47,670 bases of DNA. It comes from a virus (lineage: Duplodnaviria > Caudoviricetes). The stretch's first letter is position 1; the number at the start of each line of letters is the position of its first letter. The position numbers and the translations under genes were made by a program. The notes beneath the pieces are model-generated. The model did no database searches, had not been told where the DNA came from, and was given only the letters and a program-made list of their open reading frames with translations. This document shows, piece after piece, positions 1 through 44,663 of this stretch. Location: positions 1 to 47,670 of IMG/VR virus record IMGVR_UViG_3300022178_005855. One strand, 5' to 3'.

Positions 1-3000
1 GATGATAGATATAGTCTTACTGGACATACTCATATTGGTTTATCAGATGATTATTTAACAGGTGGTACATTTAATGTAAGTACTGGTGATTTAGATTTAA
101 ACCTTCAATCAGGAAGTACAGTTACAATAAACCTTGATGATAGATATTTAACTGGATTTACTGAAACACCAAATACAGATGATTATTTAACAGGTGGTAC
201 ATTTAATGTAAGTACTGGTGATTTAGATTTAAACCTTCAATCAGGAAGTACAGTTTCTATTAATTTAGATGATAGATATTTGACTGGATTTACTGAAACA
301 CCAAATACAGATGATTATTTAACAGGTGGTACATTTAATGAATTAACTGGTGATTTAGATTTAAATCTTCAGTCAGGTAGTACAGTTACCATAAACCTTG
401 ATGATAGATATTTGACTGGGTTTACTGAAACACCAAATACAGATGATTATTTAAGTGGGGTAACATTCAACACAACAAATGGTGATTTAACCCTTACTAG
501 GGTCTCAGGTGGAACTATTGTTGAAAACCTTGATGGAAGGTATTTAACTGGGTTTACTGAATCACCAAATACAGATGATTATTTAACTGACCATACATTT
601 AACACTTCAAATGGTTTATTTGAAAGTACCTTACAATCAGGTTCAACGGTTTCAGTTAATTTAGATGGAAGATATTTACCATTATCAGCTACAACTGATG
701 ATGATTATACTACTGGAACTACATTTAATGCAAATACTGGTGAATTAGAATTTACTAGGTTAAGTGGTGATACATATAGTGTTAATTTAGATGATAGATA
801 TTCATTAACAGGACATACTCATATTGGTTTATCTGATGATTACTTAACAGGTGGTACATTTAATACAAGTACTGGTGATTTAGATTTAAACCTTCAATCA
901 GGTTCAACTGTTACCATAAACCTTGATGATAGATATTTAACTGGTTTTACTGAAACACCAAATACAGATGATTACATAACAGGTCATACATTTAATACAA
1001 GTACTGGTTTATTTGAAAGTACATTACAATCAGGTGGTACAGTAAGTGTTAATTTAGATGGTAGGTATTTAACTGGGTTTACTGAAACAGTAGAGTCAGT
1101 AATAAACCCTTTAAATTCTTATTTTGGAAATCGAGTTAAACCTGTTTCAGATAATGAAGGATTTTATGTAGAGAGTTCTAATAATAAGGCAACAGGATAT
1201 CTTGTAAATAATACAGATACGGTAGGTAATGCTGCAATATCAGGTTATAGAGCAACTGTTAATGGAGATGCATTCAATGAGGGTGTCTATATAGGTATTC
1301 CAAATGATTCTTATTTTGCACCATGGTTAAGAGCGCATGGTCTTATTACAGGTAAGAACCTAAATATAATGGTTGGTGATAATACTGGGGATATAGTATT
1401 CTCATTAGGGAACACAGCAACTAATCAAATAACTGAAGGTCAACAAGATAAAGTTCTTTTATTGAATACCGATAGAACAATAGTGGTACCAAGTTTAACA
1501 ACAACCTTAATTAGTAATGAAACTACTGGTAGGGTATTAATTACTAGGGAATACTTAACAGATAACTACACGGCAAGTTCAGGGGATACTATTAATACTG
1601 ATGATTACATCACTGGAACTACATTTAATGTAAGTACTGGTGATTTAACATTAACTAGATTATCAGGTGGAACTATTGTTGAAAACCTTGATGGTAGATA
1701 TAGTCTTACTGGACACACTCATATCGGCTTATCAGATGATTACACCACTGGGGCTACATTTAACACCTCTGATGGTATTATTGAATTTACTAGATTAAGT
1801 GGTGATACATATAACGTTGATTTAGATGGTAGATATTTAACTATCTCAGCTTCAACCATATTAAATACAGATGATTATTTAACAGGTGGTACATTTAATG
1901 AATTAACTGGTGATTTAGATTTAAATTTATTATCTGGAAGTACAGTTACAATAAACCTTGACGACAGATACGCTCTAACGGGGCATACTCATATTGGTTT
2001 ATCAGATGATTATTTAACTGACCATACATTTAACACTTCAAATGGTTTATTTGAAAGTACATTACAATCAGGTGGTACAGTTTCAGTTAACCTTGATGGT
2101 AGGTATTTGCCATTATCAGCTACAACTGGTGATGATTATACTACTGGAACTACATTTAACCCTTCAAGTGGTATTATTGAATTTACTAGGTTAAGTGGTG
2201 GAACATATAATACTGATTTAGGTTTCACTTCTGGTGATACAAGTAATTGGGATACAGCATACAATGATTCAATTACTGGGATGACTGTTACGGGTAGTGC
2301 AACTAAAACTATAACTCTTCAACAAAAAGATGGTAGTACCTTAACAGCTAATTTCACTGATAGTACAGGTGGTGTAGGTGGTTCAGGTGACGTAGTTACA
2401 GGAATGACATTTAACACTTTAAATGGTGAATTAACGTTAAGAACATTATCAGGTGATACAATAACCGAAGATTTAGATGGTAGATATTTAACTGGATTTA
2501 CTGAAACACCAAATACAGATGATTATTTAGTTTCTGGTGATTTTGATGAATTAACTGGTGATTTAGATTTAAATTTATTATCTGGAAGTACAGTTACAAT
2601 AAACCTTGATGATAGATATAGCCTAACAGGACATACTCATATTGGTTTATCAGATGATTATTTAACAGGTGGTACATTTAATGAATTAACTGGTGATTTA
2701 GATTTAAATCTTCAATCAGGCTCAACGGTTACTATTAATTTAGATGATAGATATTTAACTGGGTTTACTGAAACACCAAATACAGATGATTATTTAACAG
2801 GTGGTACATTTAATGTAAGTACTGGGGATTTAGATTTAAACCTTCAATCAGGTTCAACGGTTACAATTAATTTAGATGATAGATACAGCCTTACTGGGCA
2901 TACTCATACAATATCTGAAATAACTGATTACATACCAACGGATGATTATACTACTGGAACTACATTTAATACAAATACTGGTGAATTAGAATTTACTAGG

Positions 3001-6000
3001 TTAAGCGGTAATACGTATAGTGTTAATTTAGATGATAGATATAGTCTTACGGGGCATACTCATATTGGTTTATCAGATGATTACTTAACAGGTCATACAT
3101 TTAATACTTCAACTGGTTTATTTGAAAGTACACTTCAAAGTGGAAGCACTGTTTCGGTCAACCTTGATGGAAGATATTCATTAACTGGACATACACATGT
3201 AGGTTTATCTGATGATTATTTAACTGGCGGTACTTTTAATACAAGTACTGGTGAATTGGATTTAAATTTATTATCTGGTAGTACAGTTACAATTAATTTA
3301 GATGATAGGTACAGTCTTACGGGACATACGCATGAGATATCTGATATAACTGATTTTACTGATAATTCAACTAATTGGGATATAGCTTATGATAACTCAA
3401 TTACAGGTGCGACATTTAATACGGGTGACGGTGTTTTAACATTACATGATGTTGGTGATGATAATAATATTACCGTTGATTTAGATGGTAGATATTTAAC
3501 TGGGTTTACTGAAACGCCAAATACAGATGATTATTTAACAAGTGGTACATTTAATGAATTAACTGGTGATTTAGATTTAAATCTTCAGTCAGGTTCAACT
3601 GTTTCTATTAATTTAGATGATAGATATTCATTAACAGGTCATACTCATATTGGTTTATCTGATGATTATTTAGTTTCTGGTGATTTTGATGTAAATACTG
3701 GTGATTTAGATTTAAATCTTCAGTCAGGTAGTACAGTTACCATTAATTTAGATGATAGATATAGCCTAACTGGACATACTCATATTGGTTTATCAGATGA
3801 TTATTTAGTTTCTGGTGATTTTGATGTAAATACTGGTAATTTAGATTTAAATCTTCAATCAGGTAGTACAGTTACTATTAATTTAGATGATAGATATTTA
3901 ACTGGGTTTACTGAAACGCCAAATACAGATGATTATTTAGTTTCTGGTGATTTTAATGAATTAACTGGTAATTTAGATTTAAATTTATTAAGTGGAAGTA
4001 CAGTTTCTATTAATTTAGATGATAGATATAGTCTTACTGGACATACACATATTGGTTTATCTGATGATTATTTAACTGGTGGTACATTTAATGAATTAAC
4101 TGGTGATTTAGATTTAAACCTTCAATCAGGTAGTACAGTTACCATAAACCTTGACGACAGATACGCTCTAACGGGGCATACACATATTGGTTTATCAGAT
4201 GATTATGTATCAAATAGTGATTTCAACACAACAAATGGTGATTTAACCCTTACTAGGGTCTCAGGTGGAACTATTGTTGAAAACCTTGATGGAAGGTACA
4301 GTCTTACGGGGCATACTCATGATTTTAATGAAATAACTAACACAGGTCATACTCATACAATATCCGAAATAACTGATTATATACCAACAGATGATTATGT
4401 ATCAAATGGTGATTTTAATACTGGAACTGGAGAAGTGACTTTAACTAGATTATCAGGTGGAACTGTTGTTTATGATTTAGATGGTAGATATTCATTAACA
4501 GGTCATACTCATATTGGTTTATCAGATGATTATTTAATAACTCATACATTTAATACTTCAACTGGTTTATTTGAAAGTACCTTACAATCAGGTTCAACTG
4601 TTTCAGTTAACCTTGATGGAAGATATAGCCTAACTGGACATACTCACATTGGTTTATCTGATGATTATTTAGTTTCTGGTGATTTTGATGTAAATACTGG
4701 GGATTTAGATTTAAACCTTCAATCAGGTTCAACAGTTACAATTAATTTAGATGATAGATACAGCCTTACTGGGCATACTCATACAATATCTGAAATAACT
4801 GATTACATACCAACGGATGATTATACTACTGGAACTACATTTAATACAAATACTGGTGAATTAGAATTTACTAGGTTAAGTGGAAGTACGTATAGTGTTA
4901 ATTTAGATGATAGATATTCATTAACTGGGCATACACATATAGGTTTATCAGATGATTATATTACTTCAGGTAATTTTAATACAGCAAATGGGGAGGTAAC
5001 TCTTACTAGGGTCTCAGGTGGAACTGTTGTTTATGATTTAGATGGTAGGTATTTAAATACTTCGGCCTATACGGATACTTTTGTAACTGGATTTACTTAT
5101 AATGGTTTAACTAATACGTTTGATATTGAACGAAATGAAGATTTACCTGATTTAAGTGTTACATTAACCACTGTTAGTGGTTTAACTGTTAATGGTGACA
5201 TTACTGTAACAGGTACTGGTATTTTTAATGAAGTTGTGGCGGTTAATGTTTCAGCAACAACAATAAACCCTGTTGATTTTATACAATTTAACACTGGATA
5301 TACTGGTAATACTATTGTTGAAGGTAGAATATATTGGGATGAAGATAATGGTACTTTAAGTTTGGGTATGCATGGCTCTAATGTACAACAACAAATTGGT
5401 GAAGAACTTTTTTATTACGTTAAAAATCAAAGTGGGGCCACTATTGAGAATGGTAGAGTTGTTTATGCAGCTGGAACTTTAGGTTCTAGTGGTAAAATTC
5501 TTGGTGAATATATGATTGCTGATGGCACAATTCCAGTTAAATATACCTTGGGAATTGCAACTGAAGATATTATTAATGGAGATGATGGATATGTAACTGA
5601 TTTCGGTTTAGTTCGTGGTATAAACGCAACTGGTGCGCCTTATGGTGAAACTTGGAATGATGGTGATTTATTATGGGTTTCCCCAACAATTGTTGGTGGT
5701 TTAACTAACATCGAACCTATATCGCCTAACTTAAAAATTGAACTCGCAATTGTAATTCATAATGATGCTAACGGTAGTGTATTTGTTAGACCACATAGAT
5801 ACCCACACTTTTATGATTTACAAGAAACTACTTGGAGTGGTGGTAGTGAAAGTAATTTAGATATTATCCAATGGGATAGCACGCTTTCAGGTTGGACCAT
5901 AACAAACACCCCATCATTTATATCAATCAGTGCTACTTCAATAAGTGGTGACACAATATATAGTGGTGATACAAATTTAACTGAAATATTTAGTACAACA

Positions 6001-9000
6001 GGTCATACTCATATCGGTTTATCAGATGATTACTTAACTGGCCATACATTTAATACAAGCACTGGATTATTTGAAAGCACACTTCAAAGTGGTAGTACAG
6101 TTTCAGTTAATTTAGATGGGAGATATTCATTAACAGGTCATACACATGATTTTAATGAAATAACTAATACTGGTCATACACATACAATATCTGAAATAAC
6201 TGATTATATACCAACAGATGATTATTTAACAGGTGGTACATTTAATGAATTAACTGGGGATTTAGATTTAAATTTATTAAGTGGAAGTACAGTTTCCATT
6301 AATTTAGATGATAGATACAGTCTTACGGGTCATACTCATAATATGATAAGTAAAACCATTGACATTTACCCAACTGACTTGATTGGTTCTGGGTCAACAA
6401 AAGACCAAGTAATTCAATACATCAATGCTTTATCACATGTTAAAACTGACGATAATTCAGATTTATGGTTTAAAGTCATCCCTAATTATATGTTAGATTT
6501 TGGTAGTGAGGGTGATTTTACTGGTAGCCCTATGGCCTTGTCAATGTCAAGTGATGGGACTATATTATATTTAGGGTTACATAATAGTAATTGTACACAA
6601 TATATATTATCAACGCCTTGGGATGTTACAACCGCAACTTTAACTGCTAGTACAGCAACTTTAGGTCAAGGTGGGGGTCTTCATGTATCACCTGATGGGT
6701 TACACATAACATATACTAATGGTGATGTAACTGATGGTACTGTTGAGATTTATAGTATGAGTACACCCCATGATTTAAGTTCGTTAACGTTAGTTAGTAC
6801 AACTGCGTTCACACAAAATTTATTTCGTAATGAATTATTCATGACGGATGATGGGTTAAATTTATATACTAGCACTGGGTCAAATGTAAGGAGATATACA
6901 TTAGCAACACCTTATAATTTTTCAGGTGTAATATTATCGGATAGTTGGAATTTTAACACGACTCATGGATTTACATTCTCTAATGATTTAAAAACTTTTT
7001 TTGTGTTTCAATCGGGTGAAAATTTAAGGCAATATAATTTAACTGTTGCTGGTGATTTAACCCCTGTAACATTGGGTAATTATAGTGCTGAAGTTGATTT
7101 TGATTTTGTTAGTGGTAATTTCTTGAAATGTCAAATTTCACCAAATGGTAAAAGATTTGTTGTTACCACGTATCTATCAGCCCCAGATGTTTTTTCATTT
7201 GGGTTATCAACGGCAGATAATATTGGAGCGATAATTGAAGCGACTAACGCTGATATTGTAATTTATAGTGATTATTATAGATTGAAAAATTACCCTTTAG
7301 GTTTAATATCTGGGGTAACAAGTAATGACATTGATGAAATCACTCAAATAAAAAATAATGATGTTACAACTTTAATTAACTTAGAAGAAATATCTAGGAA
7401 TGATTACGTAACTGATGGGTCATTTAATCCAGCAAATGGGGAAGTAACCCTTACTAGGTTAAGTGGTGGAACTATTGTTTATGATTTAGATGGAAGGTAT
7501 TCATTAACTGGACATACTCATACAATATCTGAAATAACTGATTATATACCAACTGATGATTATTTAACTTCTGGTACATTTAATGAATTAACTGGGGATT
7601 TAGACTTAAATTTATTAAGTGGAAGTACAGTTTCTATTAATTTAGATGATAGATACAGTCTTAATGACCACACACACATTGGTTTATCAGATGATTACTT
7701 AATAACTCATACATTTAATACAAGTACTGGTTTATTTGAAAGCACACTTCAAAGTGGTAGTACAGTTTCAGTTAACCTTGATGGAAGGTATTCATTAACT
7801 GGACATACTCATACAATATCTGAAATAACTGATTATATACCAACTGATGATTATGTATCAAGTGGGTCATTTAACACATCAAATGGAGAAGTAACTTTAA
7901 CTAGATTAAGTGGTGGAACTATTGTTTATGATTTAGATGGAAGATATAGTCTTGATGACCACACTCACATTGGTTTATCTGATGATTACTTAGTTTCTGG
8001 TGATTTTGATGTAAATACTGGTGATTTAGATTTAAATCTTAAGTCAGGTTCAACTGTTACAATTAATTTAGATGATAGATATAGTCTTACGGGGCATACT
8101 CATATAGGTTTATCGGATGATTACTTAACAACTCATACGTTTAATACAAGTACTGGTTTATTTGAAAGTACCTTACAATCAGGTTCAACTGTTTCAGTTA
8201 ACCTTGATGGAAGATATAGTCTTACAACTCATACACACATTGGTTTATCAGATGATTATTTAACTAGCGGTACGTTTAATGAATTAACTGGTGATTTAGA
8301 TTTAAATTTATTAAGTGGAAGTACAGTTACCATTAATTTAGATGATAGATATTTGACTGATAGTACACTTCAAAGCGTATATGAAGCGTCTACACCTTCA
8401 ACGATAACAACTGATGCAACTAGAGGTTCATTAAAACTTAAAAGAGGCGTTGGGGCTAGTGTGTACCCCCTAGAGATACAAAATAGTGCTGGTAATAGTA
8501 ATTTTATAGTTAGAGATGATGGGTATTTTTCAGGTAATGGAGATATGTTTGTACTTGGAAATATAACTGCCCAAAATAGTTTAATAACTACGAGTGTCAG
8601 TGGTTTTGGCGCAAATATAACTACTTTATTTATAAATGGAGGTGCTGGTGATTTAACTAGAGGTGGTGGTATAGGATTTAAAAATAATGACGGTTCAATT
8701 TTTGGTGCAAATTACATTTTAAATAATAAATTCAGAATGGGTACCGTTACCGCTCACGATTGGGAATTTGTTAGGACAAATGTTGCTGTTGGTGGTATTG
8801 ATACTAATGGACTCTATTTAACTGGTAATATAAGAGCTAGTGGTGCAACACTATCTTCGTTGTCAACTCAAAATGATGAATTAATCACATTGATGATTGA
8901 TGGGAGTGGGGTTGTTGGTACAAGGGAGTTAGGTACTGGAGCTTTTGTAGCTAGTGGGGCAAGTAATACAGATAATTATGTTATTTCTGGTGATTTTAAC

Positions 9001-10326
9001 CCAGCAAATGGGGAAGTGACTTTAACAAGACTATCAGGTGGAACTGTTGTTTATGATTTAGATGGTAGGTATAGTCTTACGGGACATACACATGATTTTA
9101 ATGAAATAACTAACACAGGTCACACTCATACAATATCCGAAATAACTGATTATGTACCAACAGATGATTATTTAACTTCTGGTACGTTTAATGAATTAAC
9201 TGGTGATTTAGATTTAAATTTATTAAGTGGAAGTACAGTTTCTATTAATTTAGATGATAGGTATTCATTAACTGGTCATACACATACAATATCTGAAATA
9301 ACTGATTACATACCAACTGACGATTATTTAGTTTCTGGTACATTTAATGAGTTAACTGGAGATTTAGATTTAAATCTTCAATCAGGTTCAACAGTTTCAA
9401 TTAATTTAGATGATAGATATTTAACTGGGTTTACTGAAATCGTAGAGTCAGTAATAAACCCTTTAGATTCTTATTTTGGAAATCGAGTTAAACCTGTTTC
9501 AGATAATGAAGGGTTTTATGTAGAAAGTGCTCTCAACAAAGCAACAGGATACCTTGTAAATAACACAGATACGGTTGGAAATGCCGCTTTATCAGGATTC
9601 AGAGCAGTTATTAATAATGACGCATTTGGAAAAGGTATTTATGTAGGAGTACAGAATAGTAATTATTACGCACCTTGGTTAAGAGAACGTGGTCATATTA
9701 ACGGTAATGCTATAAATATTACAACTGGTGATAATACTGGTGATATAGTATTTTCATTAGGAAATACAGCTAGTGATAATATCACAGAAGCAGCCCAAGA
9801 TAAAGTACTTTTATTAAACACGGATAGAACAATTGTAGTTCCGAGTTTAACAACAACCTTAATTAGTAATGAAACTACTGGTAGGGTATTAATTACTAGG
9901 GAATACTTAACAGATAACTACACAGCAAATTCGGGTATTGATGGTGTCTATTTACCATTATCAGGTGGGACGCTAACTGGACCAGTAACAGGTACCACTT
10001 TCAATGTATCTAACGCATTGTTAGATTACCAGGAAAATGTAAATGTTGATACTGGCTCACCTAAAGTTATAGGTATAATTTCTAAGTTAAGTTATGATGC
10101 AGTATTTTTTGATTATGTGGTTAAAAATGGTAGTAATCTTAGAGCTGGTATTGTTATGGCAGTCCATGATGGAACATCTGTGACTTATACTGACACATCA
10201 ACCTCAGATTTAGGTGATACTTCAGGTGTAAGCTTTACAGTTGATATCTCAGGTAATGATTTAAGATTAAATGCCACCGTAACTACTGATAATTGGATAA
10301 TAAAAGCATTGATAAGAGGAATTTAA
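1..10326 (+). CDS. Giant repeat-rich tail fibre/adhesin-like virion protein (5'-truncated, >3400 aa)
   Basis: Frame +1 is open from base 1 (DDRYSLTGHTHIGLSDDY...), so the track start at 280 is not the true start. Stop TAA at 10324-10326. About 45 repeats of DDYxxxxxFNxxxGxLxLxxxSGxTxxxxLDxRY with GHTH linkers, interrupted by non-repeat domains. Confidence 0.8.
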   Translation, partial: DDRYSLTGHTHIGLSDDYLTGGTFNVSTGDLDLNLQSGSTVTINLDDRYLTGFTETPNTDDYLTGGTFNVSTGDLDLNLQSGSTVSINLDDRYLTGFTETPNTDDYLTGGTFNELTGDLDLNLQSGSTVTINLDDRYLTGFTETPNTDDYLSGVTFNTTNGDLTLTRVSGGTIVENLDGRYLTGFTESPNTDDYLTDHTFNTSNGLFESTLQSGSTVSVNLDGRYLPLSATTDDDYTTGTTFNANTGELEFTRLSGDTYSVNLDDRYSLTGHTHIGLSDDYLTGGTFNTSTGDLDLNLQSGSTVTINLDDRYLTGFTETPNTDDYITGHTFNTSTGLFESTLQSGGTVSVNLDGRYLTGFTETVESVINPLNSYFGNRVKPVSDNEGFYVESSNNKATGYLVNNTDTVGNAAISGYRATVNGDAFNEGVYIGIPNDSYFAPWLRAHGLITGKNLNIMVGDNTGDIVFSLGNTATNQITEGQQDKVLLLNTDRTIVVPSLTTTLISNETTGRVLITREYLTDNYTASSGDTINTDDYITGTTFNVSTGDLTLTRLSGGTIVENLDGRYSLTGHTHIGLSDDYTTGATFNTSDGIIEFTRLSGDTYNVDLDGRYLTISASTILNTDDYLTGGTFNELTGDLDLNLLSGSTVTINLDDRYALTGHTHIGLSDDYLTDHTFNTSNGLFESTLQSGGTVSVNLDGRYLPLSATTGDDYTTGTTFNPSSGIIEFTRLSGGTYNTDLGFTSGDTSNWDTAYNDSITGMTVTGSATKTITLQQKDGSTLTANFTDSTGGVGGSGDVVTGMTFNTLNGELTLRTLSGDTITEDLDGRYLTGFTETPNTDDYLVSGDFDELTGDLDLNLLSGSTVTINLDDRYSLTGHTHIGLSDDYLTGGTFNELTGDLDLNLQSGSTVTINLDDRYLTGFTETPNTDDYLTGGTFNVSTGDLDLNLQSGSTVTINLDDRYSLTGHTHTISEITDYIPTDDYTTGTTFNTNTGELEFTRLSGNTYSVNLDDRYSLTGHTHIGLSDDYLTGHTFNTSTGLFESTLQSGSTVSVNLDGRYSLTGHTHVGLSDDYLTGGTFNTSTGELDLNLLSGSTVTINLDDRYSLTGHTHEISDITDFTDNSTNWDIAYDNSITGATFNTGDGVLTLHDVGDDNNITVDLDGRYLTGFTETPNTDDYLTSGTFNELTGDLDLNLQSGSTVSINLDDRYSLTGHTHIGLSDDYLVSGDFDVNTGDLDLNLQSGSTVTINLDDRYSLTGHTHIGLSDDYLVSGDFDVNTGNLDLNLQSGSTVTINLDDRYLTGFTETPNTDDYLVSGDFNELTGNLDLNLLSGSTVSINLDDRYSLTGHTHIGLSDDYLTGGTFNELTGDLDLNLQSGSTVTINLDDRYALTGHTHIGLSDDYVSNSDFNTTNGDLTLTRVSGGTIVENLDGRYSLTGHTHDFNEITNTGHTHTISEITDYIPTDDYVSNGDFNTGTGEVTLTRLSGGTVVYDLDGRYSLTGHTHIGLSDDYLITHTFNTSTGLFESTLQSGSTVSVNLDGRYSLTGHTHIGLSDDYLVSGDFDVNTGDLDLNLQSGSTVTINLDDRYSLTGHTHTISEITDYIPTDDYTTGTTFNTNTGELEFTRLSGSTYSVNLDDRYSLTGHTHIGLSDDYITSGNFNTANGEVTLTRVSGGTVVYDLDGRYLNTSAYTDTFVTGFTYNGLTNTFDIERNEDLPDLSVTLTTVSGLTVNGDITVTGTGIFNEVVAVNVSATTINPVDFIQFNTGYTGNTIVEGRIYWDEDNGTLSLGMHGSNVQQQIGEELFYYVKNQSGATIENGRVVYAAGTLGSSGKILGEYMIADGTIPVKYTLGIATEDIINGDDGYVTDFGLVRGINATGAPYGETWNDGDLLWVSPTIVGGLTNIEPISPNLKIELAIVIHNDANGSVFVRPHRYPHFYDLQETTWSGGSESNLDIIQWDSTLSGWTITNTPSFISISATSISGDTIYSGDTNLTEIFSTTGHTHIGLSDDYLTGHTFNTSTGLFESTLQSGSTVSVNLDGRYSLTGHTHDFNEITNTGHTHTISEITDYIPTDDYLTGGTFNELTGDLDLNLLSGSTVSINLDDRYSLTGHTHNMISKTIDIYPTDLIGSGSTKDQVIQYINALSHVKTDDNSDLWFKVIPNYMLDFGSEGDFTGSPMALSMSSDGTILYLGLHNSNCTQYILSTPWDVTTATLTASTATLGQGGGLHVSPDGLHITYTNGDVTDGTVEIYSMSTPHDLSSLTLVSTTAFTQNLFRNELFMTDDGLNLYTSTGSNVRRYTLATPYNFSGVILSDSWNFNTTHGFTFSNDLKTFFVFQSGENLRQYNLTVAGDLTPVTLGNYSAEVDFDFVSGNFLKCQISPNGKRFVVTTYLSAPDVFSFGLSTADNIGAIIEATNADIVIYSDYYRLKNYPLGLISGVTSNDIDEITQIKNNDVTTLINLEEISRNDYVTDGSFNPANGEVTLTRLSGGTIVYDLDGRYSLTGHTHTISEITDYIPTDDYLTSGTFNELTGDLDLNLLSGSTVSINLDDRYSLNDHTHIGLSDDYLITHTFNTSTGLFESTLQSGSTVSVNLDGRYSLTGHTHTISEITDYIPTDDYVSSGSFNTSNGEVTLTRLSGGTIVYDLDGRYSLDDHTHIGLSDDYLVSGDFDVNTGDLDLNLKSGSTVTINLDDRYSLTGHTHIGLSDDYLTTHTFNTSTGLFESTLQSGSTVSVNLDGRYSLTTHTHIGLSDDYLTSGTFNELTGDLDLNLLSGSTVTINLDDRYLTDSTLQSVYEASTPSTITTDATRGSLKLKRGVGASVYPLEIQNSAGNSNFIVRDDGYFSGNGDMFVLGNITAQNSLITTSVSGFGANITTLFINGGAGDLTRGGGIGFKNNDGSIFGANYILNNKFRMGTVTAHDWEFVRTNVAVGGIDTNGLYLTGNIRASGATLSSLSTQNDELITLMIDGSGVVGTRELGTGAFVASGASNTDNYVISGDFNPANGEVTLTRLSGGTVVYDLDGRYSLTGHTHDFNEITNTGHTHTISEITDYVPTDDYLTSGTFNELTGDLDLNLLSGSTVSINLDDRYSLTGHTHTISEITDYIPTDDYLVSGTFNELTGDLDLNLQSGSTVSINLDDRYLTGFTEIVESVINPLDSYFGNRVKPVSDNEGFYVESALNKATGYLVNNTDTVGNAALSGFRAVINNDAFGKGIYVGVQNSNYYAPWLRERGHINGNAINITTGDNTGDIVFSLGNTASDNITEAAQDKVLLLNTDRTIVVPSLTTTLISNETTGRVLITREYLTDNYTANSGIDGVYLPLSGGTLTGPVTGTTFNVSNALLDYQENVNVDTGSPKVIGIISKLSYDAVFFDYVVKNGSNLRAGIVMAVHDGTSVTYTDTSTSDLGDTSGVSFTVDISGNDLRLNATVTTDNWIIKALIRGI
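1069..1571 (+). repeat. Dispersed ~500-bp repeat, copy 1 (VESVINPLNSYFGNRVKP...GRVLIT domain)
   Basis: Near-identical DNA at 9421-9923 and 16561-17040. Confidence 0.95.
9421..9923 (+). repeat. Dispersed ~500-bp repeat, copy 2
   Basis: Aligns without gaps to 1069-1571 (offset 8352). Confidence 0.95.
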
Positions 10327-16152: not shown

Positions 16153-17904
16153 ATGGCATTTACCACAAAAATAGATTATTCAAATAATAGACAAATAAAA
16201 CAATTTCAGTTAACCAATACACAATTATCTGGTACGACAACATTTGGTGTTACAGATAATTTAATACCTGAAAATGTTAGTGGTGATACTATTAATATCG
16301 ATGCTCTACAATATATTAGGGCTAGAGGGCTTATATTACCTAACGCTTTACCGAATATCGTTTCTGGTGGTACATATCAATTATTAGGTAGGGATAATAT
16401 AACTGGTAAAATTGTTGAAGTTGATGCACTTTCTGGTGGTACAACTGGTGGAACAACAAATGATTACACAACTAGTGCTACGTTTAACACAAGTACAGGT
16501 CAAGTTGATTTCAACAGATTATTAGGTGGTACATATAGCGTTAATTTAGATGGTAGATATTTAACTGGGTTTACTGAAACAGTAGAGTCAGTAATAAACC
16601 CTTTAAATTCTTATTTTGGAAATCGAGTTAAACCTGTTTCAGATAATGAAGGGTTTTATGTAGAGGGTTCTAATAATAAGGCAACAGGATATCTTGCAAA
16701 TAACACAGATACGGTTGGAAATGCAGCCATAGCTGGATTTAGAGCAACTATTAACGGAGATGCATTTGATGAAGGTGTTTATTTAGGTATACAAAACGAT
16801 TCTTATTACGCTCCATGGTTAAGAGCGCATGGTCTTATTACAGGTAAGAACCTAAATATAATGGTTGGTGATAATACTGGGGATATAGTATTCTCATTAG
16901 GGAACACAGCAACTAATCAAATAACTGAAGGTCAACAAGATAAAGTTCTTTTATTGAATACCGATAGAACGATAGTGGCACCAAGTTTAACAACAGCTTT
17001 AATTAATGCAGAAGCCACTGGAAGAGTTTTAATTACTAAAGAATGGTTTCAAGCACAAACGATAACTGGTGGAACAACAAATACAGATGATTATTTAACA
17101 ACTCATACATTTAATACAAGTACTGGTTTATTTGAAAGTACCTTACAATCGGGTTCAACAGTAAGTGTTAATTTAGACGGTAGGTATAGTCTTAATAACC
17201 ACACTCACATTGGTTTATCTGATGATTATTTAACTGGTGGTACATTTAATGAATTAACTGGGGATTTAGATTTAAATCTTAAGTCAGGTTCAACTGTCAC
17301 TATTAATTTAGATGATAGATATAGTCTTGATGACCATACACACATAGGTTTATCAGATGATTATTTAACAACTCATACATTTAACACCTCAAATGGATTA
17401 TTTGAAAGTACCTTACAATCGGGTTCAACAGTAAGTGTTGATTTAGATGGTAGATATAGTCTTACAACTCATACACATAATTTATCTAACTTAAATAATG
17501 ACATTGGATTTATAACTGCATCTTTTTTAGGTATACAAAAAATTAAAGTAACTTTATCAGCATCACAAATCGAAAATATAGGTCAAGGTCCAGTGCAATT
17601 GTTACCAGCAGCTGGTGTAGGTACTGTAATTAATATAATATCGGCTGTTGCTAGACTTAACTTTGGAACCATTCCCTTTGATGATAATACCTTAGATATA
17701 GCTGACGGTAGTTTTGGTACGGCTACCCCAGGTGGTTTTTTATCAGCAACCTCAGACCAAATTGAAAGGTTGGTACGCAATTTAGATTCTGGTGGGAGTT
17801 TATTAGCAGAGAATAGTGCTGTCATCGCATCAGGAACAAGTTCAATTGCAACTGGAGATGGTACAGTAGATATTTATTTAACTTATGAAATAATATCCCT
17901 ATAA
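16153..17904 (+). CDS. Virion fibre-like protein sharing repeats and the ~165-aa domain with the giant fibre
   Basis: Four DDY/NDY...LDxRY repeats plus copy 3 of the dispersed domain. Confidence 0.75.
   Translation: MAFTTKIDYSNNRQIKQFQLTNTQLSGTTTFGVTDNLIPENVSGDTINIDALQYIRARGLILPNALPNIVSGGTYQLLGRDNITGKIVEVDALSGGTTGGTTNDYTTSATFNTSTGQVDFNRLLGGTYSVNLDGRYLTGFTETVESVINPLNSYFGNRVKPVSDNEGFYVEGSNNKATGYLANNTDTVGNAAIAGFRATINGDAFDEGVYLGIQNDSYYAPWLRAHGLITGKNLNIMVGDNTGDIVFSLGNTATNQITEGQQDKVLLLNTDRTIVAPSLTTALINAEATGRVLITKEWFQAQTITGGTTNTDDYLTTHTFNTSTGLFESTLQSGSTVSVNLDGRYSLNNHTHIGLSDDYLTGGTFNELTGDLDLNLKSGSTVTINLDDRYSLDDHTHIGLSDDYLTTHTFNTSNGLFESTLQSGSTVSVDLDGRYSLTTHTHNLSNLNNDIGFITASFLGIQKIKVTLSASQIENIGQGPVQLLPAAGVGTVINIISAVARLNFGTIPFDDNTLDIADGSFGTATPGGFLSATSDQIERLVRNLDSGGSLLAENSAVIASGTSSIATGDGTVDIYLTYEIISL
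16561..17040 (+). repeat. Dispersed ~500-bp repeat, copy 3
   Basis: 16813-16970 is identical to 1321-1478. Confidence 0.95.
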
Positions 17905-28872: not shown

Positions 28873-29616
28873 ATGGGATTACCTAAAGGTTTTATTAAGA
28901 AAGTAAAATTTATAAATCAGAATGTTGGACCTGAAAAGAGACAAGATTATCTTGATGATATAGATTATAAAGGGAGTTATTTACCAAAAAGTGTTGGTTA
29001 TGAGGATATTGATAGAACTTTTATTGAATTTGTTGATAAAGAGATGATAATATCTATCGATGGTGAATCAGTCCCAGTTCTTTTTCTAACAATTCAAAGG
29101 TGGGCTGAATTTTCTAAAACATGGACTTTTTCAGATAAATTTAAAAATACTAAAATGCCCTTCATTACTATAGTTAGAAAACCTGATATTCAAGTTGGTA
29201 CTAACCAAGCTGGTATATGGAATATACCTGGTAAGCAATTATATACATATATGAAAGTACCTACGTTCATCGATGGTCGTAAAGGTATGGACACTTATAA
29301 AATACCACAACCTACATCAGTTGATGTTACATATGAAGTTAGATTCTTTTGTAATAGAATGAAAGATTTAAATAAATTACATAAAGTGGTTCAAACTACT
29401 TTCAATTCCAGACAATTTTATATTAATGTGAATGGACATCCAATGCCTATTCATTTAGAAAGTATTGGTGATGAAAGTCAAATAAACGATTTTGATAGAA
29501 GAAGGTTTTATGTTCAAAATTTCGAAATGAAAGTGTTGGGATATATTTTAGATGAAAATGATTATGAACACATTCCAACAATTAATAGAGGTAATGTTAA
29601 GTTTAAAGAAGAATAA
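28873..29616 (+). CDS. Tail completion/terminator-like protein (gp15-like), paralogue A
   Basis: VPVLFLTIQRW, PFITIVR and PQPTSVDVTYEVRF motifs plus gene context. Confidence 0.55.
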   Translation: MGLPKGFIKKVKFINQNVGPEKRQDYLDDIDYKGSYLPKSVGYEDIDRTFIEFVDKEMIISIDGESVPVLFLTIQRWAEFSKTWTFSDKFKNTKMPFITIVRKPDIQVGTNQAGIWNIPGKQLYTYMKVPTFIDGRKGMDTYKIPQPTSVDVTYEVRFFCNRMKDLNKLHKVVQTTFNSRQFYINVNGHPMPIHLESIGDESQINDFDRRRFYVQNFEMKVLGYILDENDYEHIPTINRGNVKFKEE

Positions 29617-29622
29617 TATTGT

Positions 29623-30654
29623 ATGTCACAAGGATATAAAAAAAATGTAAAATTTATAAATCAGAATGTTGGACCTGAAAAGAGACAAGATTATCTTGAT
29701 GATATAGATTATAAAGGAAGTTATTTACCAAAAAGTATCTATTATGAGGATATTGACAAGACTTTTATTGAATTTGTTGATGATATTTTAGAAATAGAGG
29801 TTAATGGAGTGAAAGTCCCAGTCATTTTTCTAACAATTCAAAGGTGGGCTGAATTTTCTAAATTATGGGATACTTCAGATAAATTTAAAAATGTTAAAAT
29901 ACCCTTCATTACTATAGTCAGAAAACCTGACATCCAAGTTGGTACTAACCAAGCTGGTATATGGAATATACCAGGTAATAAGTTATATACATATATGAAA
30001 GTACCTACTTTTAACGGGGGTCGTAAGGGTGGTGATTTATATAAAATTCCACAACCTACGTCAGTTGACGTTACATATGAAGTTAGATTCTTTTGTAATA
30101 GAATGAAAGATTTGAATATGTTTAATCGAAAGTCTCAATTAACATTTCAATCAAGGCAATACTATATCAATGTGAATGGACATCCAATGCCTATTCATTT
30201 AGAAAAAATTGGTGATGAAAGTCAAATAAACGATTTTGATAGAAGAAGGTTTTACGTTCAAAATTTCGAAATGAAAGTATTGGGATATATTTTAGATGAA
30301 GATGATTATGAATTCGTTCCAACAATTAATAGAGCTATCATATTTACTGAAATAATAGATAAAGTAATTAAACCTAAAGTGGTTATTAGGTCATTTAAAG
30401 ATATTGATGAGATATCTTTAAATGTGATTATAAAAGCGAATCATTTTACTGATGAGTTTATTATTAATTGTGCATATGACGCACTTATAACATCAATAAA
30501 TTATGTGATAAATGTCACAAATGTAAATATAGCAATTAATGGTATCCAACAAACATTTCCATTTAACATCTCAGCTAATGAAGAAATGGTGTTAACTGTT
30601 GATAGAGATGATACAAAAGAAGCTAAATTTGAAATTAAAGGATTAGTTAAATAA
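29623..30654 (+). CDS. Tail completion/terminator-like protein, paralogue B with C-terminal extension
   Basis: Highly similar to 28873-29616 over ~240 aa, plus ~100 extra residues. Confidence 0.55.
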   Translation: MSQGYKKNVKFINQNVGPEKRQDYLDDIDYKGSYLPKSIYYEDIDKTFIEFVDDILEIEVNGVKVPVIFLTIQRWAEFSKLWDTSDKFKNVKIPFITIVRKPDIQVGTNQAGIWNIPGNKLYTYMKVPTFNGGRKGGDLYKIPQPTSVDVTYEVRFFCNRMKDLNMFNRKSQLTFQSRQYYINVNGHPMPIHLEKIGDESQINDFDRRRFYVQNFEMKVLGYILDEDDYEFVPTINRAIIFTEIIDKVIKPKVVIRSFKDIDEISLNVIIKANHFTDEFIINCAYDALITSINYVINVTNVNIAINGIQQTFPFNISANEEMVLTVDRDDTKEAKFEIKGLVK

Positions 30655-32024
30655 TGAGTAATATTAATAAGACATTTGTATTTGAGACTGTATTAATTAG
30701 TGGTGGTACAACTGGGACAACAGTTGAGTTCATAACAGGTGCTACATTTAATACTGGGTCTGGTGACTTAATTTTAGAAACTGTTTCTGGAAATACAATT
30801 AACGTACCTTTAGATGGTAGATACACTTTAACAGGTCACACACATAATATATCTGAAATAACTGGATTCACAGATAATTCAATTAATTGGGATATAGCTT
30901 ATGACGACTCAATTACTGGTATAACTGTAAGTGGTACTAACACAAAAACAATTACTCTTCAACAAAGAGACGGTAATATATTAACCACTAATTTCACCGA
31001 TAATTCAAATGATTCTAGTGACGTAGTTACGGGAATGACATTTAATACTGCAACAGGAGTGTTGGCATTAACAACGTTATCAGGTGATACAATAACCGAA
31101 GATTTAGATGGTAGATATGCTTTATCAGGTGATACAAGTACAAACACCGATGATTATGTTACAGGGGTTTCTTTTAACACTTCAAATGGGTTATTAGAAT
31201 TCACTAGATTATCTGGCGGTACATTTAACGTAGATTTAGATGATAGATATAGCCTAACAGGACATACACATGACTTATCATCATTAAATAATGACACAGG
31301 TTTTATAACAGGATTTACAGACACTAATAATAACGATTATTTAACTGGAGCCACATTTAACCCAAATGATGGGGTATTGAGTTTAAATTTATTATCAGGT
31401 TCAACAGTTCAAGTTGATTTAGATAATAGATATGCTTTATCAGGTGATACAAGTACAAATACCGATGATTATGTAACTTCAGCATCATTTAATGCCTTAA
31501 ACGGTATTCTTGAATTGACTAGAATTTCAGGTTCGACAGTTCAAGTTGATTTAGATAATAGATATACTTTATCAGGTGATACAAGTACAAATACCGATGA
31601 TTATGTAACTAGTGGTGATTTTAATATAACTACTGGTGATGTAACTTTGACTATGTTATCAGGTGGTACTGTTGTTTATAATTTAGATAATAGATATGCG
31701 TTATCAGGTGATACAAGTGCTAATACTGATGATTATTTAACTGGGGCTACCTTTAATACATCTGATGGTGTATTAGAATTTAATAGATTATCAGGTGGTA
31801 CCGTTCAAGTAAATTTAGATGATAGGTATTTTATTGGTGGACCAATAACATTTTCATGTGAAACCTCTGGCACTACAACTTACATTGGTTATGGTGAAAT
31901 TAATGCTTGTAAGATAAGAAAAATGGACACTATTTCTGGGTCCACATATACAGCATTTTGGTCAAATGGAGAAGAGACGTTAGATAAATTATGGTCAAAT
32001 AGGTTAAGTTATTTGTATTTTTAA
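30654..32024 (+). CDS. Virion protein built from the DDY...LDxRY repeat
   Basis: About 8 repeats with ALSGDTSTNT linkers. Shares the NWDxAY.DSITG...KTITLQQ block with the giant fibre. Confidence 0.75.
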   Translation: MSNINKTFVFETVLISGGTTGTTVEFITGATFNTGSGDLILETVSGNTINVPLDGRYTLTGHTHNISEITGFTDNSINWDIAYDDSITGITVSGTNTKTITLQQRDGNILTTNFTDNSNDSSDVVTGMTFNTATGVLALTTLSGDTITEDLDGRYALSGDTSTNTDDYVTGVSFNTSNGLLEFTRLSGGTFNVDLDDRYSLTGHTHDLSSLNNDTGFITGFTDTNNNDYLTGATFNPNDGVLSLNLLSGSTVQVDLDNRYALSGDTSTNTDDYVTSASFNALNGILELTRISGSTVQVDLDNRYTLSGDTSTNTDDYVTSGDFNITTGDVTLTMLSGGTVVYNLDNRYALSGDTSANTDDYLTGATFNTSDGVLEFNRLSGGTVQVNLDDRYFIGGPITFSCETSGTTTYIGYGEINACKIRKMDTISGSTYTAFWSNGEETLDKLWSNRLSYLYF

Positions 32025-38695: not shown

Positions 38696-38767
38696 AAACT
38701 TTTGGTAAAAAATTACATATTTATTTAGAAATAAGTAATTACAACAAAAAAAATAAAAATAATTTAA

Positions 38768-41182: not shown

Positions 41183-41218
41183 AATATGTAAGGGAAAATA
41201 AATCTTTCCTTACATATT
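41183..41218. other. Hairpin between sheath and tube overlapping a TATTTATT box
   Basis: AATATGTAAGG...CCTTACATATT. Promoter-like box at 41215-41222. Confidence 0.55.
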
Positions 41219-41259
41219 TATTATTAAATAAACAATTTAAAAATTAAAACAAAAATATT

Positions 41260-41748
41260 ATGAGTGATTTACTAATGAAAATGCCAGTACCTTATGAGCC
41301 AAAGAAAAAGAATAGATGGTTAATGAGATTTCCAGCTGAATTAGGTATTCAACAATGGTGGTTATCTAGCGCATCACGTCCTTCAATTACGCAAGGCGAA
41401 GTTGAAATACCATTCTTAAACACATCAACGTGGGTTATTGGTAGATTTACATGGGAAACTATTGAAGTAGTGTTTAGAGACGCTATTGGACCATCTACAT
41501 CTCAAGCTATTATGGAATGGGTTAGATTACAATCTGAATCTGTAACAGGTAGACAAGGTTATGCTGCTGGATATAAAAAAGATGTTGAAATAGAAATGTT
41601 AGACCCAACTGGAGTTGTTGTTGAGAAATGGCAATTACAAGGGACTATGTTAACCAACGTTGGATTTGGTGATTTATCAATGGAAGATGATGGGATAGCT
41701 GAAGTTAACGCAACATTAAGATTTGATAGAGCAATTTTATTATTCTAA
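41260..41748 (+). CDS. Tail tube protein (T4 gp19-like)
   Basis: Follows the sheath. YEPKKKNRW, EWVR, GYAAGYKKD, LDPTG.VVEKW.L.G and LRFDRA motifs. Confidence 0.9.
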   Translation: MSDLLMKMPVPYEPKKKNRWLMRFPAELGIQQWWLSSASRPSITQGEVEIPFLNTSTWVIGRFTWETIEVVFRDAIGPSTSQAIMEWVRLQSESVTGRQGYAAGYKKDVEIEMLDPTGVVVEKWQLQGTMLTNVGFGDLSMEDDGIAEVNATLRFDRAILLF

Positions 41749-41775: not shown

Positions 41776-41925
41776 ATGGAGATACAAAATATTTTAGGAA
41801 TAGCATGTATAGCACTAGTACTTGGGGTTATAATTTATAAAAGGGTCACTAGAGGTGAAACTTTAAAAGATATATATGAAGATATTGATAATCAAGAAAT
41901 TGAAGAACAAGAAAAATTAAAATAA
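41776..41925 (+). CDS. Small single-TM protein (49 aa, not in ORF track)
   Basis: MEIQNILGIACIALVLGVIIYKRVTRGETLKDIYEDIDNQEIEEQEKLK. Confidence 0.6.
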   Translation: MEIQNILGIACIALVLGVIIYKRVTRGETLKDIYEDIDNQEIEEQEKLK

Positions 41926-41997
41926 ACGGTTTAGGACCGATTATAGTCTAACGGCTATTAAAACCACTTAAGTTTCGCTACTAAAGTGGTTTTTTTT
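41926..41997 (+). ncRNA. Candidate structured RNA with complementarity to 23S rRNA helices 69-71, ending in a terminator
   Basis: Three hairpins: CGGT-ttagg-ACCG; ATAGTC-taac-GGCTAT; AAAACCACTT...AAGTGGTTTT followed by a T-tract. Contains TTAGGACCG, TTATAGT, ACGGC and TTTCGCTAC. Confidence 0.55.
41960..41997 (+). terminator. Intrinsic terminator
   Basis: 10-bp stem AAAACCACTT/AAGTGGTTTT running into an 8-T tract. Confidence 0.8.
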
Positions 41998-42019
41998 ATT
42001 TAATAAACTATTTATAATT

Positions 42020-42364
42020 ATGAAGATACCAATAATTAAATACAACGACAACTTTTTAAAAAACCTTAGCATTTTTATGTCAATAGGTGGAATTACATTA
42101 TTCCCATTTATAATCTTACGTGAGAAGTATAAAAATAACCCAAAAAATATAATTAGACATGAAAGTATTCATATAAAACAACAAATTGAAATGTTGGTAA
42201 TACCATTTTATGTTTTTTATACATTAGAGTGGTTTATTAAATTATTTATATTTGGTACTAAAGCATATCAAAACCTTTCTTTTGAAAGAGAGGCTAAAAC
42301 AAATGAAGGAAACCCAGATTATCTTAAAACTAGAAAATTCTGGGCATGGGTTAAATATTTATAA
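42020..42364 (+). CDS. Small membrane-associated HExxH zincin-like protein
   Basis: GITLFPFI, IRHESIHIKQQ, a hydrophobic segment and SFEREA. TATTTATA at 42009-42016. Confidence 0.7.
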   Translation: MKIPIIKYNDNFLKNLSIFMSIGGITLFPFIILREKYKNNPKNIIRHESIHIKQQIEMLVIPFYVFYTLEWFIKLFIFGTKAYQNLSFEREAKTNEGNPDYLKTRKFWAWVKYL

Positions 42365-42369
42365 AAGTT

Positions 42370-42522
42370 ATGAGAAGACAAGATAAAAAAACGGCTATGG
42401 TGGAAGCTAATAAGCGTTTTCAAGAAAGGGTTAATGCCGAAGACCCAACGATTCAGGAGAAAAAAATAGAGTATACATATGTTCCAGACATATTTCCTGA
42501 ATTATCTAGAATGTTAAAATAA
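42370..42522 (+). CDS. Small protein with MRRxDKK leader (50 aa, not in ORF track)
   Basis: MRRQDKKTAMVEANKRFQERVNAEDPTIQEKKIEYTYVPDIFPELSRMLK. TATTTATA at 42356-42363 and a TAATG overlap with the next gene. Confidence 0.75.
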   Translation: MRRQDKKTAMVEANKRFQERVNAEDPTIQEKKIEYTYVPDIFPELSRMLK

Positions 42523-42989
42523 TGAGAAGGTACGATAAAAAAATACACATGAAGAAGGTAAACCTTCTTTTTGAACAAAGATATTTAAATGAAACAATTA
42601 GTGCTAGTGACGCTCACACTGATTGGGGTGCCATGATGTCCGTTTTAAAAGGGGATAGAAATGTGGCATTTCTTCTTGGCCCATTTATTGAAAAATGGTT
42701 CAATAAATACATTAAAGATAATAGTAGTGTTGATTTGATGGTTGTTAAGCGAGATGGTAATGGTATTTATGGTGATGCCTATATATTATACAGTGATTTA
42801 GAAAAAGCAAAACACTTACATAGTATCACATCAAAACATGGTGGTTATTTAGCAGATTATTCACCAGAAGAAGCTATTGAAAATGGGGAAGCGTTAGAAT
42901 ATAATGATAATGATATCAAAACTTTTGTTGATGACCATTATGGGTTTGAAGCTTATGATAAAGTAAAAAACAATGAGAAGACAAGATAA
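42522..42989 (+). CDS. Hypothetical protein with MRRxDKK leader
   Basis: MRRYDKKIHMKKVNLLFEQRYLNE N-terminus. Confidence 0.75.
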   Translation: MRRYDKKIHMKKVNLLFEQRYLNETISASDAHTDWGAMMSVLKGDRNVAFLLGPFIEKWFNKYIKDNSSVDLMVVKRDGNGIYGDAYILYSDLEKAKHLHSITSKHGGYLADYSPEEAIENGEALEYNDNDIKTFVDDHYGFEAYDKVKNNEKTR

Positions 42990-43254
42990 AAAAATTGCAA
43001 TGAAAAAAGCTAATATGCTTTTTGAACAAAGATGTAATGAAAGTGCATTTAGTTGGGATGGGAAGTATGCCAATGAAGAAGATATTGATGAAGCGATGTT
43101 TTTAGGTGATGATATGGAAACTATTGAGGAAACTGAAGAAATTGAAGAAGATTGTGGGTGTCTATTAAATCAACCAGAACCAACTGATGTTGAAAGTAGT
43201 CAATGGTTTTCTGATGAAGATGGTGAAAGAATCACCGATATGGAATTAGATTAG
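42973..43254 (+). CDS. Acidic hypothetical protein with MRRxDKK leader
   Basis: MRRQDKKIAMKKANMLFEQRCNE followed by an E/D-rich body. Confidence 0.75.
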   Translation: MRRQDKKIAMKKANMLFEQRCNESAFSWDGKYANEEDIDEAMFLGDDMETIEETEEIEEDCGCLLNQPEPTDVESSQWFSDEDGERITDMELD

Positions 43255-44636: not shown

Positions 44637-44663
44637 AAAAAACCCCTAAATTTTAGGGGTTTT
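44637..44663 (+). terminator. Intrinsic terminator
   Basis: AAAACCCCTAA-att-TTAGGGGTTTT directly after the TAG. Confidence 0.75.

Follow-up and report, generated by a model that had tools for sequence, protein, structure and literature searches.

The window, i.e., the whole stretch of 47,670 nucleotides analysed here, is a fragment of a large myovirus genome (13% complete according to CheckV) with genes for tail sheath, tail tube, baseplate hub, DNA polymerase and helicase. The phage is a jumbo phage, and no tRNA or tmRNA was found in the 47,670 nt. Few Shine-Dalgarno sites in the window (4/27) and A-rich leaders give a hint of a Bacteroidota host. The motif TATTTAT stood within 60 nt of 14 of the 27 forward gene starts examined, as compared to 3.9% of random 60-nt windows, and is likely a late promoter motif of the jumbo-phage clade to which this phage belongs; examples in the window (10340-44676) are found at 38718, 41215, 42009, 43277 and 44676. 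The element described here occupies positions 41926-41997, and the features at the locus are the following.

41215..41221, + strand: promoter-like motif TATTTAT, putative start of the transcript with the tail tube gene, the 49-aa ORF and the element
41260..41748, + strand: tail tube gene (PHROG 4542, E 1e-27)
41776..41925, + strand: 49-aa ORF of no family, not needed by the element
41927..41939, + strand: hairpin 1 of the predicted fold, carrying arm A
41930-41939, + strand: arm A, complementary to 23S 1920-1929 (3' strand of H69, and H70)
41941..41958, + strand: hairpin 2 (the hairpin itself at 41943-58), with one G-U pair, U41947-G41954; an optional scaffold in the family
41960..41997, + strand: hairpin 3 (stem-loop 41960-93) and U run, predicted intrinsic terminator
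41973..41982, + strand: arm B, apical loop of hairpin 3, complementary to 23S 1929-1938
42009..42015, + strand: next copy of the promoter-like motif, preceding the 114-aa ORF and marking the downstream boundary of the element
42020-42364: 114-aa ORF, matching PHROG 15610

The 49-aa ORF gave no match in PHROG and Pfam searches. It is absent in the relatives L058 and L797, where the element lies directly 3' of the tail tube gene; in the window the element begins 1 base past the stop codon of this ORF. Late expression of the RNA, as first proposed, is plausible to the extent that the element ends an operon beginning at the promoter-like motif before the tail tube gene, a motif whose promoter function at 41215..41221 we infer. 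Further long AT-rich hairpins were seen at 41183-41218 and 44639-44663, each adjoining a promoter-like motif, and the second one looks bidirectional. Elsewhere in the window, the adjacent ORFs 28873-29616 and 29623-30654 are closely similar paralogues, the first of which was scanned and fell into no PHROG family. Three consecutive small ORFs (42370-42522, 42522-42989 and 42973-43254) have a common N-terminal motif, MRR.DKK..M.K.N..F..R, and the ORFs 280-10326, 16153-17904 and 30654-32024 contain many copies of a repeat of ~45 aa, ..DDY..G.TFN..TG.L.L...SG..V..NLD.RY..

Complementarity to rRNA was evaluated against E. coli rrlB. The bases quoted in the preliminary description were located where it had placed them, and its claim of about 30 nt matching 23S rRNA in swapped order over three hairpins was borne out. 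The segments 41931-41939, 41941-41947 and 41973-41981 complement 23S 1920-1928, 1913-1919 and 1930-1938, respectively, and the duplex model added pairing of 41951-41955 with 1907-1911; the bases of hairpin 2 complement 1906-1919 with two bulges. In all, 30 bases form Watson-Crick pairs, and G-U pairs extend the match to G1929 and G1906. According to the Rfam consensus structure, the target comprises H69 (1906-1924), H70 (1925-1929) and a mostly unpaired linker (1930-1938), while the stem of H71 (1945-1961), initially counted as part of the target, is not reached. The arm seeds face 23S bases that are unpaired in the secondary structure (1926-1928, 1930-1934 and 1936-1938), and arm B together with its flanks can pair to ~1940. 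The two arms abut at A1928/G1929/G1930 in swapped order, leaving no U or unpaired pocket at the junction. The modelled element-23S duplex has about -30 kcal/mol vs. -6 kcal/mol for the H69 hairpin, and ~14 kcal/mol was gained on cofolding from the 5' half of the element alone.

The + strand is predicted to fold into the three hairpins with z = -4.0, and none of 200 shuffles was as stable. The early suggestion that the + strand is the folded RNA agrees with the U run, the co-orientation with the genes and the G-U polarity, all of which are on this strand. A simple terminator scan did not flag hairpin 3. An H/ACA guide was rejected as a candidate, since the arms abut and stand in swapped order with no target U left unpaired between them; so was an rRNA gene fragment or pseudogene, since no LSU model matched in the contig and the order is permuted. 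Two 9-mers against adjoining rRNA sites arose in 25 of 20,000 dinucleotide shuffles (~1 in 800). As many as 46 sliding 72-nt windows of the contig pass the same two-9-mer test, including a cluster near 3477 inside a large ORF; the window locus alone is therefore only moderately significant, and it is the family evidence that carries the claim.

Distribution, architecture and conservation of the family

The family pattern was defined as arm A, a gap of 20-50, and arm B, and its members were of two types. In the terminator type, to which the window copy belongs, arm A comes first, a middle hairpin may follow, and a terminator-like hairpin carries arm B in its loop. The order in the pseudoknot type is arm A, optional hairpin, hairpin with a GGCUGCU loop, arm B hairpin, and a 3' strand pairing with that loop; among 110 such members, loop and 3' strand were GGCTGCT/GTGAGC in 80, GGGTGCT/GTGACC in 5 and GGCTACT/GTAGC in 4. 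The pattern occurred in IMG/VR in ~1,500 stretches, estimated from 6 of 64 parts with at least 120 matches listed, and all but 2 of the first 120 matches were taken as members on inspection. The swapped-order control gave 27 stretches over the whole of IMG/VR, about half of which were one redundant group. Metagenomes held an estimated ~2,600 matches, 119 of which were examined and sorted as terminator-type (60), pseudoknot-type (40), rRNA (1) and unclassified (18). Matches in GTDB numbered ~240 by estimate; among the 120 examined, 22 were rRNA genes themselves and one was member-like (L348, a 29-kb MAG contig), the rest having no such structure by eye. The homologues in phage and metagenome contigs, on which the preliminary description had made its claim depend, thus exist in numbers, and as far as the three scans reach the element is virus-specific. 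Judged from these matches, a 72-base element is common to many otherwise dissimilar phages.

The absence of a named family was confirmed with Rfam 15, which had no match at 41926-41997 (E ≤ 5) nor in 18 member loci (E ≤ 1). Both RNA models made of the family are sequence-only. No member was retrieved when the window element and three relatives were compared by BLASTN with 50,697 phage records. A search with archaeal-type arms gave 25 matches, none of them structured on inspection, and a search for the alternative-loop class described below returned mostly chance matches (6 members among 108 unique matches); planctomycete-matched arms gave 23 matches with 3 family members. In the GTDB Acidobacteriota MAGs L326, L336 and L362 the 23S gene is interrupted next to 1930-1931 by other sequence, possibly an intron.

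In the window subfamily, the same three hairpins were predicted in all 25 hand-picked members. What held of the proposed three-hairpin anti-rRNA element were arms A and B, which are conserved; the middle match, to the H69 loop, can be dispensed with. In L081, L092, L826 and L911 it is broken by compensatory changes in the middle stem, and hairpin 2 is missing in many pseudoknot-type members, and for these reasons the rRNA match of the middle hairpin may be regarded as a scaffold or an optional seed. The minimal unit is arm A plus arm B.

The third loop of 22 of 99 pseudoknot-type members complements 23S 1968-1978 instead, i.e., the 3' side of the same junction. This match is 7-10 nt long in 8 of the 9 loop types checked, and random loops with a CGC core reach 8 nt in 23S 1900-1985 in 0.6% of cases. 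Fourteen of the 22 members also complement 23S 1827-1833; the two targets form the opposite strands of H67, so that the anti-1971 and anti-1827 pieces could pair internally. The TCGTGC loop class was not counted as support, since it matches 1964-1969 over only 6 nt and other sites better. A complement of 8-11 nt to 16S 517-528 (the 530 loop) was found in 77 of 114 pseudoknot-type members, and in none of 93 terminator-type members nor in the window element. This 16S match is lost in about one third of the pseudoknot type, and the same loop covaries with its internal pseudoknot partner.

Some loci differed from the common arrangements. The pseudoknot-type loci L150, L164, L204, L245 and L255 have up to four pieces complementing 23S 1918-1930, 1931-1936, 1827-1833 and 1971-1978, plus the anti-16S loop. 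Three GC-rich phage contigs (L921, L929 and L930, at ~301-380) carry arm A with anti-H69-loop bases and a long GC hairpin but no arm B, an arrangement which by its predicted pairing is a third anti-23S architecture. L931 and L935 have at 301-316 an intergenic phage sequence of 16 nt perfectly complementary to planctomycete-type H69, also with no arm B; this is a different element, possibly host-matched.

The first pattern had fixed both arms, and therefore searches leaving one arm out of the pattern were performed. Arm A, when absent from the pattern, was exact in 45 of 49 terminator-like matches, and 3 of the other 4 were G-U-compatible. By wider criteria it was exact in 49, one off in 6 and two or more off in 1 of 56 terminator-type matches; the corresponding numbers for 99 pseudoknot-type matches were 69, 21 and 9. 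When arm B was left out, TCGCTA was found in the loop of 38 of 41 terminator-like hairpins (61 unique matches). Among the stems of hairpin 3, 67 different 8-bp sequences were counted, and almost every position showed all four Watson-Crick pair types. Stem positions reached at most ~0.7 bits, and the terminator type conserves nothing outside the arms and the U run. The stems were 97.6% paired, with 22 G-U vs. 0 A-C, values which are partly built in by the membership requirement of 7/8 pairs. Covariation was counted by script; RNAalifold on a MAFFT alignment found no pairs, the stems being out of register there. Substitutions opposite 23S 1921-1928 keep a G-U pair in 16 of 24 cases, compared to 4 of 24 possible changes, though the cases are not phylogenetically independent. 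Mismatches to E. coli are produced by 13 substitutions opposite the end base C1920 and by 8 internal ones. The arm-free searches and the stem counts together bear out the expectation that rRNA-complementary bases are conserved more than the stems and that the stems covary; on this sequence evidence, selection acts on the rRNA complementarity of the arms. Of 61 Bacteroidota genomes searched, 28 had a match, and in all 28 the target is identical to that of E. coli; it varies at 1918-1921 in Planctomycetota. No host-matched covariation of arms and target was demonstrated.

Gene neighbourhood and cultured carriers

A stop codon on the same strand was found no more than 50 nt from 165 of the 193 copies, a count uncorrected for genome compaction, and in some copies the stop codon is inside arm A. 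The element has the orientation of the upstream gene in 78 of 80 loci. Independence from the flanking genes, considered from the beginning as a mark of a genuine element, was apparent in the upstream ORFs, which formed 35 clusters among 72 loci, none common to both types; no partner gene common to both types was found within 1.5 kb. Upstream genes include those for ribonucleotide reductase, tail tube, desaturase, nuclease and protease, and the ribonucleotide reductase gene is directly 5' of the element in 9 of 22 terminator-type loci. All five large genomes had one strong copy each, and the window has a single copy; one contig has two (L705, L706). There were 28 copies with no near upstream ORF, 12 of which face a divergent gene, and 7 of these have TATTTAT 35-70 nt in front. 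In L817, L861 and L911 no ORF was seen between TATTTAT and the element. A promoter motif was also found downstream of the element: in the pseudoknot type it was TAAATA (44 of 109 copies), in the terminator type TATTTAT (25 of 94). Because the element is mostly single-copy, has unrelated upstream genes and sometimes a promoter-like motif of its own, a trans-acting RNA is favoured. It appears to be an RNA gene, often carried at the 3' end of a transcript, which in the window is presumably the one starting near 41215. Readthrough of the stop codon was considered and rejected, as another in-frame stop follows three codons on. As a separate observation, a gene for an 86-aa DsbA-like DNA-binding protein was found within 1.3 kb downstream of 31 of 57 pseudoknot-type loci, often with a DNA polymerase gene after it.

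Phage Paride (OR805295.1) has one copy, of the pseudoknot type and intergenic, at 273,882-273,967 (E 4e-6), and 11 records of related Pseudomonas phages carry it with 99-100% identity. Paride is able to replicate in dormant cells, and the accessible text of the paper describing it is without mention of ribosomes (PMC10761892). A copy is absent in 4 of 5 cultured jumbo phages related to pseudoknot-type carriers and, by pattern search, in all 5 cultured or assembled phages nearest to the window phage by tail tube; since such relatives have no copy, the element is dispensable. Phage PA5oct has a copy at about 115,470-115,590 of MK797984.1, yet that copy is not called in its RNA-seq, where the published account, in its available parts, annotates four ncRNAs with none at the position of the element (PMC7318152). 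The region of the window was also found in seven freshwater metatranscriptome runs, all from 2017 and possibly from one campaign. The contigs (assembled only, depth 2-7) cover the tail tube gene and the 49-aa ORF and end at 41886-41931 in five runs. No contig among those listed covers the element, which is not taken as evidence on transcription or processing.

Proposed mode of action and alternatives

The element has features typical of a trans-acting antisense sRNA, i.e., a conserved seed complementary to the target, a covarying scaffold and a predicted 3' terminator. Its RNA probably pairs with 23S rRNA; that it blocks subunit joining we regard as an evenly balanced matter. The reading we put forward, with some reserve, is that a trans-acting small RNA pairs with the opened H69-70 of immature or split 50S subunits and keeps the 50S from joining the 30S. 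The RNA would be made here as the 3' end of the late tail-tube transcript, and in some relatives from a promoter of its own. Hairpins 2 and 3 would present both arms, docking in swapped order on the contiguous 1920-1928 and 1929-1938 and starting at bases that are unpaired in the 23S secondary structure; the swapped order would suit two loops on a scaffold docking side by side. A working 70S is unlikely as a substrate, because pairing with 1920-1938 would need H69 open, as in late assembly intermediates and factor-split subunits. Free 50S subunits with disordered H68-71 that are unable to rejoin exist and have been likened to late assembly intermediates (PMC11831132), and H68/H69 appear late in 50S assembly (PMC11077053). 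A jam is favoured in view of a predicted duplex much more stable than H69 and of the lack of any linked release factor. In starvation and quality control, the decay of 23S starts with a cut by RNase E after 1942 (PMC4931109), and because this site is four bases past the duplex, the jammed subunit would probably be passed to RNase E and degraded, curbing the building of host ribosomes and freeing nucleotides. Taken by itself, decay of the 50S as the outcome is doubtful.

Several observations count against this reading: the stop-codon proximity of 165 of the 193 copies, which also fits a cis element, the mismatches to E. coli (13 at C1920 and 8 internal), the uncalled copy of PA5oct, the cultured relatives that have no copy, the loss of the 16S match in about one third of the pseudoknot type with covariation of that loop and its internal partner, and the complementarity of the anti-1971 and anti-1827 pieces to each other. 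In addition, it is not obvious what a lytic phage, itself dependent on ribosomes, would gain from pure inhibition. In broader terms, it seems fairly probable that small RNAs of jumbo phages pair with host rRNA cores (23S H67-H70 and, in one subtype, the 16S 530 loop) and control the fate of unjoined subunits. They would then be the first natural antisense rRNA regulators in bacteria, and a candidate for ribosome management by phages such as Paride in starved or dormant hosts.

The main rival could follow from the same pairing geometry with the opposite outcome, namely protection of the 1942 site: the RNA would protect idle 50S against cutting by RNase E or against host toxins, or chaperone the refolding of H67-H71, and ribosomes would be preserved in starved hosts. 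The pairing of arm B and flanks to ~1940 adjoins that cut, a copy is found in Paride with its replication in dormant cells (PMC10761892), and a chaperone would fit both the multi-arm variants, which touch the two strands of H67, and the precedent of the snoRNA snR190, a chaperone of 25S folding in yeast (PMC8536666). We nevertheless hold this unlikely; a duplex of -30 vs. -6 kcal/mol would need a release factor, whereas no common partner gene lies within 1.5 kb, and protection would require near-stoichiometric RNA, whereas the PA5oct copy is not among the abundant ncRNAs called in the available data (PMC7318152). The frequent closeness to stop codons, with the stop inside arm A in some copies and hairpin 1 of the window beginning one base past it, would be explained if the element acted in cis as a 3' UTR capturing 50S released after termination on the upstream gene, to the benefit of recycling or coupling, while the terminator or pseudoknot would keep the mRNA end stable. 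This we give a low probability in view of the single copy per genome, the 35 unrelated upstream gene clusters, the 12 copies facing a divergent gene, the loci L817, L861 and L911 with a promoter-like motif and no ORF in front, and the window having no readthrough frame.

A terminator or processing signal with loops read by a protein, in which the rRNA match is a relic of rRNA gene capture, would account for the terminator-like anatomy and for the promoter motif just downstream in many copies, as in PeSL cassettes, and the antisense of a hairpin is a hairpin itself; it would leave the wobble-preserving substitutions, the retargeted loops and the separate anti-16S arm unexpected, and the PeSL paper, in its accessible text, describes promoter plus stem-loop cassettes in variable regions and never mentions rRNA (PMC4122927). 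We rate it improbable. Two arms flanking one junction in swapped order, together with the conserved extra module of the pseudoknot type, could also point to a trans ribozyme, or to a guide recruiting an enzyme of phage or host, nuclease or modifier, to the 1928-1930 junction. A comparable arrangement of two arms is known from the EBS loops of group II introns. The modification guide offered in the preliminary description did not hold in its box-type form, as no conserved boxes or K-turn were found outside the arms among 67 terminator-type representatives, where nothing but the arms and the U run stays above ~0.7 bits, and Rfam gave no snoRNA match at the locus; with no U or unpaired pocket at the junction and no common neighbouring enzyme either, guide and ribozyme are very improbable. 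A DNA-level decoy for an rRNA-targeting homing endonuclease, a minus-strand mimic of H69 and a chance match have hardly any probability left and are largely refuted. The split between the arm targets is near the cut of I-CeuI, but the halves of the recognition site are swapped and 33 nt apart in DNA, which makes no contiguous site, and variants match rRNA strands 40-100 nt apart and 16S. The mimic falls with the + polarity of U run, genes and G-U pair and with a minus-strand centroid that has no H69-like hairpin, and chance, at which a single locus passes the shuffles about 1 in 800 times, with the 27 stretches of the swapped-order control vs. an estimated ~1,500.

For an antisense RNA that jams open 50S subunits, the closest models in plasmids and bacteria are the loop-presenting CopA/CopT, RNA I/RNA II and OxyS-fhlA, which target mRNAs or primers; more generally, bacterial small RNAs are known to target mRNAs or proteins. 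The element resembles them as a predicted small hairpin RNA with an intrinsic terminator, variable stems and fixed seed loops, two of which can contact one target, but differs in complementing a conserved host 23S core in swapped order. Chaperone snoRNAs of the snR190 type are alike in being short RNAs with separate segments pairing with large-subunit pre-rRNA before folding, but snR190 is a eukaryotic box C/D RNP with helicase-driven release (PMC8536666), while the element is viral, with no conserved box and no common partner gene. HflX-type inactivation has the proposed end state, a free, non-rejoining 50S with open interface and disordered H68-71, but HflX is a host GTPase protein (PMC11831132) and the element a candidate base-pairing RNA. 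Jumbo phages act on host ribosomes, partly late in infection, through phiKZ014 (PMC10914614) and phage bS21 (PMC9723584); these are proteins, and phiKZ014 binds outside the subunit interface (PMC10914614). PeSL cassettes of T4-like phages are likewise intergenic stem-loops followed by a promoter with variable flanking genes, but they come as sets in hyperplastic regions (PMC4122927), whereas the element has fixed anti-rRNA loops and mostly a single copy; stem-loop followed by promoter was thus found here, several copies per genome were not. A synthetic peptide nucleic acid is an antisense agent against bacterial H69, but it is a man-made 13-mer (Kulik et al. 2017, via PMC12916000).

Searches of open-licence PMC and bioRxiv gave no published description of the element or of an anti-rRNA phage RNA. 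In Fremin et al. 2023 (PMC10690425) 23S never occurs in the main text and the motifs are absent from the supplements examined; the family could stand there unnamed. The phage ribosome factors in the literature covered are proteins. If the proposed pairing is true, a natural RNA directed at H69-70, which forms a universal intersubunit bridge, would represent a mode of host takeover that is new, would serve as a tool to trap 50S in late states of assembly, and would offer a natural model for antibacterials acting as antisense to rRNA. Because Pseudomonas phages with a copy are in culture and have a laboratory host, the claim can be tested directly. The pseudoknot-type carriers among L001-L080 hold, besides the element, many auxiliary genes, such as those for desaturase, ferritin, radical SAM and isocitrate lyase.
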